Source: a virus | Taxonomy: Duplodnaviria > Caudoviricetes | Length of the DNA: 64,000 nucleotides | Strand: one strand, 5' to 3' | Virus record (IMG/VR): IMGVR_UViG_3300015615_000196 | Span: 298,604-362,603 of that record | Part shown: piece after piece, positions 1 through 63,447 of the stretch | Layout: the number at the start of each line of letters is the position of its first letter | How positions within the stretch are numbered: the first letter of the stretch is position 1 | The notes under the pieces: model-generated | Told to the model about the DNA's origin: nothing | The model's database searches: none | What the model saw: the letters and a program-made list of their open reading frames with translations, nothing else | Program-made: the position numbers and the translations under genes

Positions 1-18
1 CCGCTAAACTAAGTACCC
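1..18 (-). tRNA. 5' fragment of a tRNA gene, truncated by the window edge
   Basis: Minus strand reads GGGTACT-TA-GTTT-AGCGG: acceptor 5' strand, U8-A9 and start of the D-arm, with the same D-arm start as the tRNA at 618-689. Identity cannot be determined. Confidence 0.55.
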
Positions 19-265: not shown

Positions 266-377
266 TGGGAAGGGATGGACTTGAACCACCAACCTCTCAG
301 CTTTGCGATCTGTAAAGATGCATACCATTGCATTTGATTTCCGCATCACTGAGTTCTCTAACTTGAGATACCTTCCC
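266..377 (-). ncRNA. tRNA-like RNA with a 48-nt structured insert replacing the anticodon loop
   Basis: Minus strand: acceptor GGGAAGG/CCTTCCC, D-arm TCTC-AAGTTA-GAGA, anticodon stem CTCAG/CTGAG enclosing 48 nt (301-348), T-arm GGTGG-TTCAAGT-CCATC. No encoded CCA. Confidence 0.75.
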
Positions 378-1769: not shown

Positions 1770-2456
1770 TTGTCAGTAAAAGAGAAGCACACTGAGAAGT
1801 CGATGCTCAAAGCAGTCCACAATTATTTTTCAGGTGATTATAAGTACTGCTTGAAGAATTCATTTGTGTTCAGACATGATTGGGAGTCGGATTACTTTTG
1901 TGTGAATAGGGAAGGATACGCATACGAGATTGAAGTGAAGATCAGCAAGAAAGACTTCAAACTCGATTTTAAAAAGGAGAAGCATAAACTGTTTGAGGAT
2001 TACTCGGCAGTACAGAAGGGAAGGCTCACACCGAACAGATTTTACTATGCTGTTCCAAAAGACCTACTTACTGAGGAAGACATTCCGAAATATGCTGGTC
2101 TGATATATGTGGATGGGTCACACATGAACATAGTGAAACGTGCACCATTCATACACAAGACCAAGCACGATTATCGGAAAATACTTTGTGATAAGTTCTA
2201 CTACCAGTTGCTTGCTAAGAGAAAGGAACTGAACATCATAGAGTATGACAAAGAGTCGTTGGAAAAGAAAATTCAGAACTTTTGGATTAATTCTTTTACC
2301 TTTGAGAAACAATCTTGGGAGATTCTGTCGATTGACTTCAAGAACAAGAAGGTAACAGGAGAATCGATGCCATACTACGATAAGCACAATCACTACAAAT
2401 TGGTGAAAGGTGAGGAAGTGAGAGAATTTGATTTTAAGGACGTAAAATTTAAATGA
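1770..2456 (+). CDS. PD-(D/E)XK nuclease, MmcB-like
   Basis: WESD...YEIEVKISKKDFKLD..K motif followed by NRFYYAVP. Confidence 0.6.
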   Translation: MSVKEKHTEKSMLKAVHNYFSGDYKYCLKNSFVFRHDWESDYFCVNREGYAYEIEVKISKKDFKLDFKKEKHKLFEDYSAVQKGRLTPNRFYYAVPKDLLTEEDIPKYAGLIYVDGSHMNIVKRAPFIHKTKHDYRKILCDKFYYQLLAKRKELNIIEYDKESLEKKIQNFWINSFTFEKQSWEILSIDFKNKKVTGESMPYYDKHNHYKLVKGEEVREFDFKDVKFK

Positions 2457-3781
2457 TGGAAAAAGTAACATTCAAATACGAAGGAGAGGACATTACAATT
2501 GAGTTGACAGACGAGTTCGCAAGAGCGCACGAATTGCTTGAAACCACTGATGAAAGTTTTTTCATAACTGGAAAGGCAGGAACTGGTAAATCAACTTTGC
2601 TCAAGTACTTTCGTTCTCAAACCAAAAAGAATGTTGCTGTTGTTGCTTTCACTGGTCTCGCTGCAATTAACGTAGACGGACAAACAATCCATTCGTTCTT
2701 TGGATTCCCAATTGGTTTCATTCATCCTAATGCAATCAAGTTCAATGATGAACTTCAATATTTGCTTAGGACATTAGATACCATTGTAGTTGATGAAGTG
2801 TCAATGCTTCGTGCAGACTTGATGGATGCAATGGATAAGTCTCTTCGTATTCATCGTGGTGTTACCAAACCTTTTGGTGGTGCACAAATGATTTTCATAG
2901 GTGACTTGTACCAATTGCCACCTATTGTAGAGAGAGACTTGACTGACGTATATGGCAAGTACTACAAGACCCCGTATTTTTTCAGTGCAGACGTTTTCTC
3001 GCACATGAGACTCCCGTATATTAATCTTGAAAAAATACATCGTCAGAACGATCCTGAGTTCATCGGTATTCTGAATGCGATTCGTGAAAGAAGGGATTTG
3101 ACTCCGGCACTTAATCGTCTCAATCAAAATGTCTCATACGACTTCAATGATTTGAAGGCCGGAGAAACAGTGGTGCTTTCAACCACGAACGAAAAGGTTA
3201 GAGAAATCAACAATTTCTTTCTTGACAATCTAAACGTTCAAGCGTATTCCTTTGCAGCAAACATCGGTGGTGACTTCGATCCCAAGTCGTATCCCACAGA
3301 GGAACGTTTGTATTTGAAGGAAGGTGCAAAGGTCATGTTCGTGAAAAACGATCCTGACAAATATTTTGTAAATGGTGACATTGGTATTGTAACAAAACTC
3401 ACTCCATTTTCAATTGAAGTGAAAGTGAAGGGAAGTACGTTGGTCGTGAAGAAACAGAAGTGGGAAAAAATTAAATACAAATACGTTCCTTCTGATCAAG
3501 AAGGTGAACGTGGATCGGTTCAGAAAACCATCGTTGGTTCATTCGAACAGTATCCTCTACGTCTTGCATGGGCGATCACCGTACACAAAAGTCAGGGTCA
3601 GACATACAACAAAGTTTTCATTGACTTGCATACTGGTAGCTTCACTTCTGGTCAAACGTATGTGGCACTTTCACGCTGCAAAACCCTTGACGGCATCAAA
3701 TTGCAACGGCCAATTCGGGAGAGCGATGTCATTCTGGATCAGCGCATTACGGAGTTCGCGAGAACCTTCCAGAGTATGTAA
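2453..3781 (+). CDS. PIF1/RecD-like SF1B DNA helicase
   Basis: Walker A GKAGTGKS, VDEVSM, GDLYQLPP, HRQ, QYPLRLAWAITVHKSQGQT, GQTYVALSR. Confidence 0.92.
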   Translation: MMEKVTFKYEGEDITIELTDEFARAHELLETTDESFFITGKAGTGKSTLLKYFRSQTKKNVAVVAFTGLAAINVDGQTIHSFFGFPIGFIHPNAIKFNDELQYLLRTLDTIVVDEVSMLRADLMDAMDKSLRIHRGVTKPFGGAQMIFIGDLYQLPPIVERDLTDVYGKYYKTPYFFSADVFSHMRLPYINLEKIHRQNDPEFIGILNAIRERRDLTPALNRLNQNVSYDFNDLKAGETVVLSTTNEKVREINNFFLDNLNVQAYSFAANIGGDFDPKSYPTEERLYLKEGAKVMFVKNDPDKYFVNGDIGIVTKLTPFSIEVKVKGSTLVVKKQKWEKIKYKYVPSDQEGERGSVQKTIVGSFEQYPLRLAWAITVHKSQGQTYNKVFIDLHTGSFTSGQTYVALSRCKTLDGIKLQRPIRESDVILDQRITEFARTFQSM

Positions 3782-36374: not shown

Positions 36375-36935
36375 TCAAAACCCTGCCGGACAGTCGAGTG
36401 TTAATGGCCAGCACGGTTCCCACTGACGGGAGCAAGTTTGAGTTCGAATCTCATGTCAGTCGTTAGAAGGTAGGTGAGATCATATAGCAGTGACCATTGG
36501 CAATTTGGTGTAACAGAAGCACATCGGTTTCCCCGAAGGAGTGAGTGTTGCGATTCTCACGATTGCCGGAAAGATGGTCACGAAGAAAAGCCCTGATAAT
36601 GCAATGGCTGTCACCAGAGCAAAACAGGCAGTAGGGTTGACAGACTCTATGGGGTAAAAATGACCCCGTTGGCGCATAGGGAGATAGGCTCGAAAGAGTA
36701 CGGCCTGACAAAATTCGGGTAAGATCAACCCGGAGACTTGCGACAATGAAACCCTACAGGGTGCAAGAACACGGTGAATAGACTATACGGTAACCATCCC
36801 GACAACAGCCGTGATCCCTGTATGCGCGAATACGTTGGTCGTATACGTGACAGGTGGCCTCATATGCCCCTTCGAAAACGCCTACTAATCCCCTGCGGAA
36901 GGTCGCCAAAATGACCTGAAACAGGGGATTTTTTA
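36375..36935 (+). ncRNA. candidate large structured ncRNA with two tRNA-like domains
   Basis: Non-coding gap in a gene-dense region, with its own promoter and terminator, GC-richer than its flanks, many stems, a GAAA tetraloop and long-range 5'/3' pairing. Confidence 0.7.
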
Positions 36936-45410: not shown

Positions 45411-46475
45411 GTGAACATAAAATACTTCACAACGATCAACTACATTGAAGAGAACGCCCTCAATCAAATAGAGGACTTGCGTCAGGAAGAACACATCCAA
45501 GATGTTGCCGTGTTCCCTGATATTCATTTCTGTGACGAGAAGGGAATACCAGTCGGATTGACTTTTGCAACAAAGGACGTTGTCTATCCATTGATCACTG
45601 GTAAGGACATGGGTTGTGGAGTTGCGTACTTGAAGATACCAAACCAATATATCTTAAAGCCTTTCAACAAAGACGAACACTATCGTGCTTTCGACAAAGC
45701 ACACTTCAACATGACTGATGAAGGACTTGGTGGTGGTAATCACTTCCTTTCATTGGAAGTAGACGCTGGTAACTTGTATGTTATCGTTCATACTGGAACA
45801 CGAAACAGAGGCATCTACATGTACCAACGTAACATGGGATTGCTACAAGAATACGGTAGCAAGAAATACTTCACCGTTGACTTCCTGAACACGAACTATC
45901 CGAAGTGGTTTGATGAATACAACGGAGTCATTGAATACGGCAAGCAACGTAGACTTCAATTCCTTAAAGGTACGTTTGATTTCCTTGTACGTAACAAGTA
46001 CGTTATGAGCATGAACTTCGATGCGTTGCTTCGTGGTGATTCAGTTCATAATCATATCAAGAAGGAAGGAGATCAATACATACACCGTAAGGGAGCAACC
46101 GAACTCGGCAATGAGATCGTAGTTATTCCGTTGTCGATGACCAGAGGAAGTTTGTTTGTCAAACAACGTTTCAGATATTCAAGTGTTGGGCAAGATACCA
46201 GTAACTTGAACTCCTGCTCTCATGGTGCTGGAAGAAAGTTAAGCCGTACCAAGACCATGAAGTACTGGCATAGTTCTTTGAAGGAGAGAGAACGAAAGGA
46301 ATACCGTGAACGATTCAATGAGTTACTTGATCGTAGTGGTGACTTCCCAAAGGGTTACATACAAGAGTTTGACTTTGCATACAAAGACTCCAATGACTTG
46401 TTGAGAGAGCAACCGTTCCTTCAACAGATCACCAGAACCACACCAATCTGTACAGTTAAATTCACCGAGATATGA
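45411..46475 (+). CDS. rtcB: RtcB-family RNA 3'-phosphate/5'-OH ligase (compact)
   Basis: FPDIH, DMGCG, LGGGNHF, VHTGTR, HNH, HRKGAT, SCSHGAGR. Confidence 0.9.
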   Translation: MNIKYFTTINYIEENALNQIEDLRQEEHIQDVAVFPDIHFCDEKGIPVGLTFATKDVVYPLITGKDMGCGVAYLKIPNQYILKPFNKDEHYRAFDKAHFNMTDEGLGGGNHFLSLEVDAGNLYVIVHTGTRNRGIYMYQRNMGLLQEYGSKKYFTVDFLNTNYPKWFDEYNGVIEYGKQRRLQFLKGTFDFLVRNKYVMSMNFDALLRGDSVHNHIKKEGDQYIHRKGATELGNEIVVIPLSMTRGSLFVKQRFRYSSVGQDTSNLNSCSHGAGRKLSRTKTMKYWHSSLKERERKEYRERFNELLDRSGDFPKGYIQEFDFAYKDSNDLLREQPFLQQITRTTPICTVKFTEI

Positions 46476-61886: not shown

Positions 61887-62055
61887 AAGACTTAAAATAA
61901 ATTATGGACAAGGTTGAAATGTTATTCGCAGACATCTTAAAATGGACTTTGATCGTATTGGTCATTGCCTTTGTTGTCTGTGTGGTAGTGTAAGTTTTTA
62001 CTGTTACTACCAAATCAATAGTTATTCGTGCAGTCTACCTAAACACAACAAAAAA

Positions 62056-63447
62056 ATGAATCAGAATTTTACATTCGTCAGAAAAATCAAGTTGGGTATT
62101 ATTAATGACACCAAAGAAGGTAAAAATGCTGATTATGAAAGAATGAGAAGCATCCAGTATCATAGCTGGAAACTTGCCAATCGAATAGTACAAGGTCAAT
62201 TCTTCTTACGATTCTTTCCCGAAGTGATACTTTTTAAACACCCCGATACTTATGAACTATACAAAGAGATACAAGGTAGAATAACCAAGATCAGTCAGAT
62301 TAAAAAGAAAACGGATTTGGACAAGGCAGAACTGAAATCCTGCTATGCCCAAATTAAAGACATTCAGAAACAGTTCGAGATTGAAATCGAAGAATACCGT
62401 AGAAATGGGTCAATCCAGAATTTCACGTATGCATTCAACGCTGACGAATACCGTGATCTTATTCCATCTACGGTTCGTGCATCATTGAATCAAAAGGTAT
62501 TCAAAGATTTCAATACCAGATATAAAAACTTCTTGCAAGGTAATGCATCAATTCAAACGTACAAGAAAACGTTGGCCGTCCCTTTTCAAGGGAAAAGTAT
62601 TATTGATCTAAAATTAGAAAAGGAAGGGTTTACTTTTAATTTATTTGGAATTAAGTTCCTGTGCTTGCTTGGTAAGGATGGAAATAATACCAAACACATT
62701 CTCACCCACTTGACAAATAAAACCGATGAATTCAAACTCAATGATTCATCATTCATGTTTAAGGACGGGGAATTGTTCATGAATATGAACTTATCCTCGA
62801 ACGTGGTGAAGGTAAAGAAAAACCCGAATATTGTTGCGGGTATCGATCTTGGTGTTAGTCGCATGGCTACGATGGTCATTCGTGACCGTTCCTCCGATTC
62901 CTCCACCAATTATATCGAACGTAGATTCTTCGGGGATGATTCGTTAATGAAACGTGCGATGTTCTACCAGAACAAAAGATCAAATGTTAATCGTAGCTAC
63001 CTGACCAAAACAGGAAAAGGAAGACTTCATGCAGTTAAATCAAAAAATCAGAATCTTGATAAGTTCGCAAGATTTCGCGATAACTTCAATAAAAAGATTG
63101 CTCATGATATAATACAAAGATGCATTGCAAACAACGTATCGGTTATCGTAATGGAGGATTTAAGTAAAATCGGAGAACTTAATTTCTTTATGAAGAATTG
63201 GCCTTATTTTGATCTTCAAACCAAGATTGAAAACAAAGCCAAAGAATATGGAATTAAGGTTGAGTATGTTGACCCCGCATATACCTCACAAACATGTCCT
63301 GCTTGTGGACATGTGGGTAAAGAAAACAGGGAGATTCAAAAGCACTTTGAATGTAAATCCTGTGGTGTGAAGGGTAATGCTGATGTAATCGGAGCCATAA
63401 ATATTGCCAACAAAATTCCGATTGAATCATTGCAAGTCTCAGTTTAA
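62056..63447 (+). CDS. cas12f: Cas12f-like / TnpB-family RNA-guided nuclease (~463 aa; start reassigned to ATG 62056)
   Basis: RuvC-I AGIDLG, RuvC-II VIVMEDL, WPYFDLQTKIENKA..YGI.V..VDPAYTSQTCPACG, CKSCG zinc ribbon, RuvC-III NADVIGAINIA; directly upstream of a CRISPR array. Confidence 0.85.
   Translation: MNQNFTFVRKIKLGIINDTKEGKNADYERMRSIQYHSWKLANRIVQGQFFLRFFPEVILFKHPDTYELYKEIQGRITKISQIKKKTDLDKAELKSCYAQIKDIQKQFEIEIEEYRRNGSIQNFTYAFNADEYRDLIPSTVRASLNQKVFKDFNTRYKNFLQGNASIQTYKKTLAVPFQGKSIIDLKLEKEGFTFNLFGIKFLCLLGKDGNNTKHILTHLTNKTDEFKLNDSSFMFKDGELFMNMNLSSNVVKVKKNPNIVAGIDLGVSRMATMVIRDRSSDSSTNYIERRFFGDDSLMKRAMFYQNKRSNVNRSYLTKTGKGRLHAVKSKNQNLDKFARFRDNFNKKIAHDIIQRCIANNVSVIVMEDLSKIGELNFFMKNWPYFDLQTKIENKAKEYGIKVEYVDPAYTSQTCPACGHVGKENREIQKHFECKSCGVKGNADVIGAINIANKIPIESLQVSV

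Follow-up and report, generated by a model that had tools for sequence, protein, structure and literature searches.

The RNA gene at positions 266-377, read on the minus strand, is likely a non-decoding RNA built on a tRNA scaffold: a stable molecule that would use the tRNA shape for maturation and stability, with a selected helical arm replacing the anticodon. It is probably the local member of a family whose place in a cassette of non-coding RNAs is the same across related jumbo phages. The analysis demonstrates the fold of the element, the conservation of the family and covariation in its four stems. It also shows that the insert is under selection in a sister lineage and that the features needed by an intron are absent. 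The window examined here comprises the last 64 kb of a 362,603-bp jumbo phage record with terminal repeats; the phage genome has a G+C content of 40.5% and contains ~63 tRNA genes, with all 20 amino acids covered.

On the minus strand, the 5′ strand of the acceptor stem, GGGAAGG (371-377), pairs with 267-273 at seven of seven positions, and by sequence reading the 3′ strand is followed by the discriminator A at 266 (266-273 together); CCA is not encoded. The D arm (355-368) consists of a 4-bp stem (368-365 with 358-355) and a 6-nt loop containing a single G. This loop is without the GG (G18 and G19) that in tRNA makes the elbow contact with the T loop, whereas the relatives described below retain it. 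The 5′ strand of the anticodon stem (349-353) forms five of five pairs with the 3′ strand (296-300), the variable loop is 5 nt, and the T arm (274-290) combines a 5-bp stem with the canonical 7-nt loop UUCAAGU. All of the stem pairs (21/21) are intact. The 7-nt anticodon loop is replaced by a 48-nt insert (301-348, as folded by RNAfold), and the second base of the loop is G, so that U33 is absent and there is no readable anticodon.

The Rfam tRNA model (RF00005) aligned to the 112-nt element end to end, over model positions 1-71, and scored 46.3 bits, where the gathering score is 29 (E = 1.6e-8 when 1 kb was searched), treating 47-48 nt as one insertion. The minimum free energy fold from RNAfold was a cloverleaf plus a rod (-38.6 kcal/mol, z = -3.7 relative to 200 shuffles). 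Together with the match to a family model described below, these results place the tRNA likeness of 266-377 beyond chance. ARAGORN did not call the element with or without intron mode, and the default Rfam filters missed it when the whole 64-kb window was searched. The original prediction had described intact acceptor, D, anticodon and T stems with a 48-nt insert in the loop, a D loop without GG, no U33, and inner stems TGCG/CGCA and TGCA/TGCA. The Rfam score and the cloverleaf fold bear out the stems and the insert, the minus-strand reading agrees on the GG and U33, and both inner stems are present in the minimum free energy fold.

Within the insert, the anticodon stem is prolonged through a 2x2 purine internal loop into a 5-bp helix (341-345 with 304-308), beyond which lie a side hairpin and then an unpaired stretch. 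The side hairpin (318-333; a 5-bp stem with a 6-nt loop in the fold) is lineage-specific, being absent from 9/9 relatives. The unpaired stretch, UUUACAG (310-316), has a core, UUACAG, that is common to three relatives. The insert is present once in the phage genome. A paralogue search among the tRNAs of this phage found none close to the body of 266-377, the best partial likeness being to a tRNA-Tyr.

The element is part of a gene-free minus-strand run of folded RNAs, with modules a few bases apart in the order 618-689, 493-617, 378-492, 266-377, 193-265, 19-192 and a tRNA that lies over the window start. The first gene of this cassette is an amber suppressor tRNA with anticodon CUA (618-689; called by ARAGORN, 65.8 bits with Rfam). 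It is followed by a structured RNA (493-617, from the cassette fold) and a long rod with a multiloop (378-492), parts of which are conserved in the related locus L001. On the other side of 266-377 folds a small three-way junction of 73 nt (193-265); Rfam has no family for 378-492 or 193-265. Next comes a second tRNA-like scaffold (19-192) with ~98 extra bases and a 10-nt T-like loop in its fold. Its acceptor stem is similar to that of 266-377 and it is 72-74% conserved in L001 and L005, and the Rfam tRNA model gives no match to it. The last module (window 1-18, genome 298551-298621), which runs past the window start, is a tRNA with sound arms and the 6-nt anticodon loop AUUGAG. All of these modules are on the minus strand. 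The cassettes also contain other tRNA shapes, with abnormal loops from 3 to ~100 nt. The original prediction had counted 266-377 as the third anticodon-less tRNA mimic in the window, a count that fits with the 6-nt-loop tRNA at 1-18 and the scaffold extended by ~98 bases at 19-192, the latter without an Rfam tRNA match.

A scan of positions 1-1200 for sigma-70 promoters and terminators found nothing, a result that carries no information for a phage of Bacteroidota, and the small proteins neighbouring the cassette matched no Pfam family. Recoding of TGA or TAG in the window was considered and rejected; reading TGA as sense only opens non-coding frames. The AUUGAG-loop tRNA has its own counterparts. 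In the outgroup phage (helicase 55% identical), one tRNA of the main array has exactly this 6-nt loop (L283:1260-1334), and relatives have 3-8-nt loops on the same GGGTAST-type acceptor stem. It looks as if these RNAs form a second conserved family of non-decoding tRNA shapes. Elsewhere in the phage, the main tRNA array has, according to ARAGORN, another CUA suppressor tRNA that bears a 19-nt insert (genome 59159-59272, minus strand; only a fragment match with Rfam). ARAGORN also called a tRNA-Lys with a 2-kb insert (genome 241987-244108). This tRNA-Lys call is similar to a class II tRNA gene in a related locus (L011:2781-3079, minus strand), where a 220-nt insert at the anticodon loop is possibly a group I intron. 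Near the genome end, at window 61942-63447, is a TnpB/IS605 OrfB-like gene with a Cas12f1-like TNB domain.

The PIF1-type helicase encoded near the cassette (2453-3781) has many close metagenome homologues, the nearest of them 93% identical, and the DNA around nine others provided the relatives. Their helicases are 72-79% identical to that of the window, with one outgroup at 55%. Each related locus contains a cassette of the same kind, headed by a CUA suppressor tRNA. In L001 the RNA modules on both sides of 266-377 align with those of the window, and the slot is therefore syntenic. A tRNA-shaped gene occupies this slot or lies near it in 8-9 related loci or contigs; in L011 the cassette is present and the family member is absent. 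The members found in relatives have a GGGGAGR acceptor stem, which differs from GGGAAGG at 371-377 by compensatory changes. Their D and T arms are normal, and they have an anticodon ‘loop’ of 21-31 nt.

A covariance model, R1, was built from seven relatives with the window sequence left out. The best match of R1 in the window was 266-377 (53 bits, E = 5.6e-11, filters off), which ranked above the genuine suppressor tRNA nearby. Two further candidates on the plus strand, 36389-36462 and 36499-36568, scored 11.6 and 14 bits with loops of 8 and 5 nt, and were rejected with no Rfam tRNA support. In an alignment of 10 sequences, which was fitted to the model and so is biased towards structure, albeit with a large margin, 99% of stem cells were paired and both sides had changed at 17/21 pairs, including 5/5 pairs of the anticodon stem. 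This level of pairing and double change was matched by 0/500 shuffles, and sliding the partner by 1-3 columns reduced pairing to ≤64% and double changes to ≤4. The pattern, in a family comparison of ~10 sequences in all, indicates that the tRNA body of the family is under selection. The original prediction had proposed asking of homologs whether the insert varies while the body covaries. Both were seen: covariation at 17/21 pairs of the body, and arms that differ between lineages in length and sequence.

Searches beyond these loci yielded no further members. Blastn of 200-720 against INPHARED phages gave no match, and neither an exact 25-mer of the 3′ half nor a gapped family pattern matched in IMG/VR. 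A 16-mer of the shared insert motif gave 63 IMG/VR matches, none of them in a tRNA-like gene, and these were attributed to chance. A loose pattern scan of metagenomes returned ordinary tRNAs of ~81 nt, with no new member among the matches listed. The helicase found no match in an IMG/VR single-protein search, and an alignment-based helicase search led, besides the known outgroup, to distant phages alone, in which the family was absent. A full-text literature search found no paper describing the family.

The arms of the family share a plan, in which the anticodon stem is followed by a purine-rich and mostly asymmetric internal loop, a distal helix of 3-6 bp and an apical loop. Their content depends on the lineage and roughly tracks the helicase tree. 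L001, L133 and L134 have a common 27-nt insert with unpaired UUACAG, and L005 has a 31-nt variant. In L008, L009 and L010 an AGUA...GAA internal loop of the loop-E/bulged-G kind lies under a short stem and small loop. The insert of the outgroup L135 contains UUACUGA, and two members have loops of only 21 nt that end in tetraloops. The insert of the window retains the UGCG/CGCA helix and UUUACAG. It resembles the 27-nt inserts modestly (shuffle p of 0.01-0.03) and the AGUA-type inserts not at all. Sequence identity among L001, L133 and L134 is 85-89% for the insert and 76-85% for the tRNA body, as against 50-52% at four-fold sites of the adjacent helicase. The excess of insert identity over these four-fold sites indicates that within this lineage the insert is under selection and is not free to drift.

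The AGUA...GAA arms, located at L009:7561-7647, L010:7897-7983, L008:6469-6560 and L134:2664-2751, carry a bulged-G (loop E) motif that recalls the sarcin-ricin loop in 23S rRNA. Another type of module in the relatives' cassettes, at L010:7408-7488 (plus strand) and L134:2854-2934 (minus strand), is a tRNA body with a conserved 15-nt loop containing CUGUAAU, which is nearly a tRNA-Tyr anticodon loop and is complementary to the UUACAG loop seen in the family. Kissing of UUACAG and CUGUAAU loops was considered and rejected: the two types occur together only in L134, and the cassette of the window phage has no CUGUAA.

Were the arm idle, the element could act as a processing signal only. RNase P and a 3′ trimming enzyme would cut the long cassette transcript at the tRNA shape and so free the RNAs on either side, in the manner of tRNA punctuation in mitochondria, and the insert would have no role of its own. 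The tight packing of the cassette and its several tRNA shapes with abnormal loops are in keeping with this idea, as is a tRNA body far better conserved than the length of the loop. We nevertheless consider it unlikely. In L001, L133 and L134 the insert is as conserved as the body although neutral sites are near saturation, all arms retain the succession of helix, internal loop and helix, and a plain tRNA or a minihelix would be equally good for cutting.

The intron question concerns whether the element could be a tRNA from which an endonuclease excises 41-48 nt of insert and the phage RtcB joins the halves. The intact tRNA body of 266-377 speaks for such a gene, and so does the RtcB gene, which the original prediction had placed at 45411 and Pfam confirms (PF01139, 45411-46475), 45 kb from 266-377. 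A further precedent comes from the Lak megaphages, huge gut phages of Bacteroidota in which small, enigmatic tRNA introns were reported (Devoto et al. 2019, PMC6784885). They share with 266-377 oversized tRNA genes whose inserts are too small for self-splicing. However, in the Lak genes an anticodon can still be assigned around the insert, and alleles lacking the intron served to define it (PMC6784885), whereas no excision restores an anticodon loop in 266-377 and an insert-free allele was not found. The RtcB of this phage is short (354 aa); its Pfam match spans only model positions 9-57 and 150-425, and a segment of the usual N-terminal part is seemingly missing. In a review of jumbo phages, the role given to phage RtcB is the repair of cleaved tRNAs by ligation (PMC7824862).

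Several observations argue against excision. A scripted search found no bulge-helix-bulge motif compatible with the cloverleaf. In the sole strict match, the partners of the insert are the variable loop and T stem, in conflict with the cloverleaf, and the unpaired bases beside the anticodon stem oppose each other, whereas a bulge-helix-bulge requires a stagger of four pairs. The tRNA-splicing endonuclease domain (tRNA_int_endo, PF01974) was not found among the genes of the phage itself, although PF01974 had a match in a bacterial genome used as control, Bacteroides thetaiotaomicron. In 8/9 members (the window and 7/8 relatives), removal of a single block never yields a 7-nt loop with U33. ARAGORN in intron mode read five homologues as Tyr, Ile, Val, Phe and Leu and made no call on 266-377, and two relatives have merely 21-nt loops with tetraloops. 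The tRNAs of the phage, moreover, already serve all 20 amino acids. A group I intron is excluded. The core of such a ribozyme takes ~200 nt or more, and with an insert of 48 nt and no Rfam intron family in positions 1-1000 at E up to 10, the judgement that the insert is far too short for one was sound. We consider a protein-spliced mini-intron distinctly improbable, and this reading is disfavoured by the sequence features above. Of the two readings first offered, the tRNA-scaffolded RNA agrees with the evidence, with a body that covaries and an arm conserved within a lineage, and the mini-intron sealed by RtcB is the less favoured, with no bulge-helix-bulge, phage-encoded endonuclease, U33 or shared anticodon.

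The window copy departs from its relatives in a D loop without GG, a different D arm and anticodon stem, and an extra hairpin. Given these departures, it could be drifting. Taken further, the missing GG and the hairpin unseen elsewhere might mark a decaying tRNA pseudogene with a chance insertion. This is very unlikely: 21/21 stem pairs are intact in the window copy, compensatory changes maintain the pairing of the family despite saturated neutral sites, and every family member has an expanded arm.

Bacterial and phage Y RNAs of the YrlA type are non-decoding tRNA mimics linked with RNA-repair genes such as that of RtcB (Chen et al. 2014, PMC4201824; RF02553). The tRNA-like shape and the RtcB gene recall the bacterial rsr-yrlA-rtcB operons, but it is extremely improbable that 266-377 is a Y-RNA-type partner of a Ro60/Rsr ring protein: the TROVE domain (PF05731) of Ro60 was not found in the whole phage genome, Y RNA families had no match in 1-1000 at E up to 10, and YrlA closes its acceptor-like stem with a loop and ends in another, Ro-binding stem, whereas 266-377 ends in the acceptor stem.

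The closest known analogues of the element are RNA1 and RNA2 of phage T5 (T5s03 and T5s06 in NC_005859), which are annotated as ‘tRNA-like stable RNA with unknown functions’. The likeness is one of architecture and not of family membership. Like 266-377, the T5 RNAs lie inside a phage tRNA cluster among other stable RNAs, and in our own parse RNA2 combines a 7-bp acceptor stem with a D arm and a canonical T arm, while 53 nt stand where an anticodon loop would be expected. On the other hand, neither RNA1 nor RNA2 matched R1 with filters off, RNA2 did not match the Rfam tRNA model, and 266-377 is far more tRNA-like (46 bits) than RNA2; host and phage lineage also differ. In the tRNA scaffolds of Ponchon and Dardel, the anticodon stem-loop is reportedly swapped for a cargo hairpin, which borrows tRNA processing and stability. 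Those scaffolds are man-made, whereas 266-377 is a natural and conserved RNA of the same design.

We return to the favoured reading of a non-decoding, tRNA-scaffolded RNA. The cassette would be transcribed from upstream of the amber suppressor tRNA, and the acceptor and T arms may recruit host RNase P, a 3′ trimming enzyme and the CCA-adding enzyme, by which the RNA would be excised and stabilised. The anticodon arm appears to have been remodelled into a longer, irregular helix that would be unable to reach a codon. This arm would then be the working part of the molecule, offering a docking surface to a protein or to another RNA; purine-rich internal loops are the kind of motif on which proteins and RNAs dock. 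Such docking would most likely take place within a tRNA-centred conflict between phage and host. That setting is suggested by the many tRNAs and the RNA ligases in which these phages invest, together with the abnormal tRNA shapes in the cassette.

One possible partner was considered more closely. UUUACAG (310-316) is exactly complementary, over all seven bases, to the anticodon loop of tRNA-Tyr(GUA), for which the phage has three genes, and in L005 the homologous loop complements the tRNA-Ile(UAU) loop just as exactly. In shuffle tests on the inserts, matches of this kind arose with p of 0.18 for tRNA-Tyr and 0.10 for tRNA-Ile in L005, neither significant alone. The outgroup motif showed no better match to its canonical tRNA-Tyr loop and no covariation with it. 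An RNA ligase gene (PF09414) lies at genome 81450-81911 between two tRNA-Tyr genes of a Lys/Tyr tRNA array, with a second PF09414 copy at genome 74118-74576; we take this ligase to be Rnl2-type, from the family that seals nicks in duplex RNA. That the unpaired stretch of the arm is an ‘anti-anticodon’ gripping the anticodon loop of one tRNA species is quite unlikely. If true, the arm would shield the loop from a host anticodon nuclease or, alternatively, would serve as a splint, pairing with a cut loop so that the Rnl2-type ligase meets a nicked duplex.

To our knowledge, the stable tRNA-like RNAs that have been seen in phage tRNA clusters since T4 and T5 have never been explained in function. 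Genes of the present kind escape ARAGORN and the default Rfam filters, and tRNA finders in intron mode assign them spurious anticodons. The family described here provides a comparative handle: it combines a clean tRNA body with an arm that each lineage conserves but that takes a different form from one lineage to the next, and its position behind the suppressor tRNA is fixed, among the other abnormal tRNA shapes of the cassette. If the arm is a decoy or a tRNA-binding module, the family would offer a natural precedent for the tRNA scaffolds of RNA engineering, and the contest in which phage tRNAs face host anticodon nucleases would gain a layer based on RNA.
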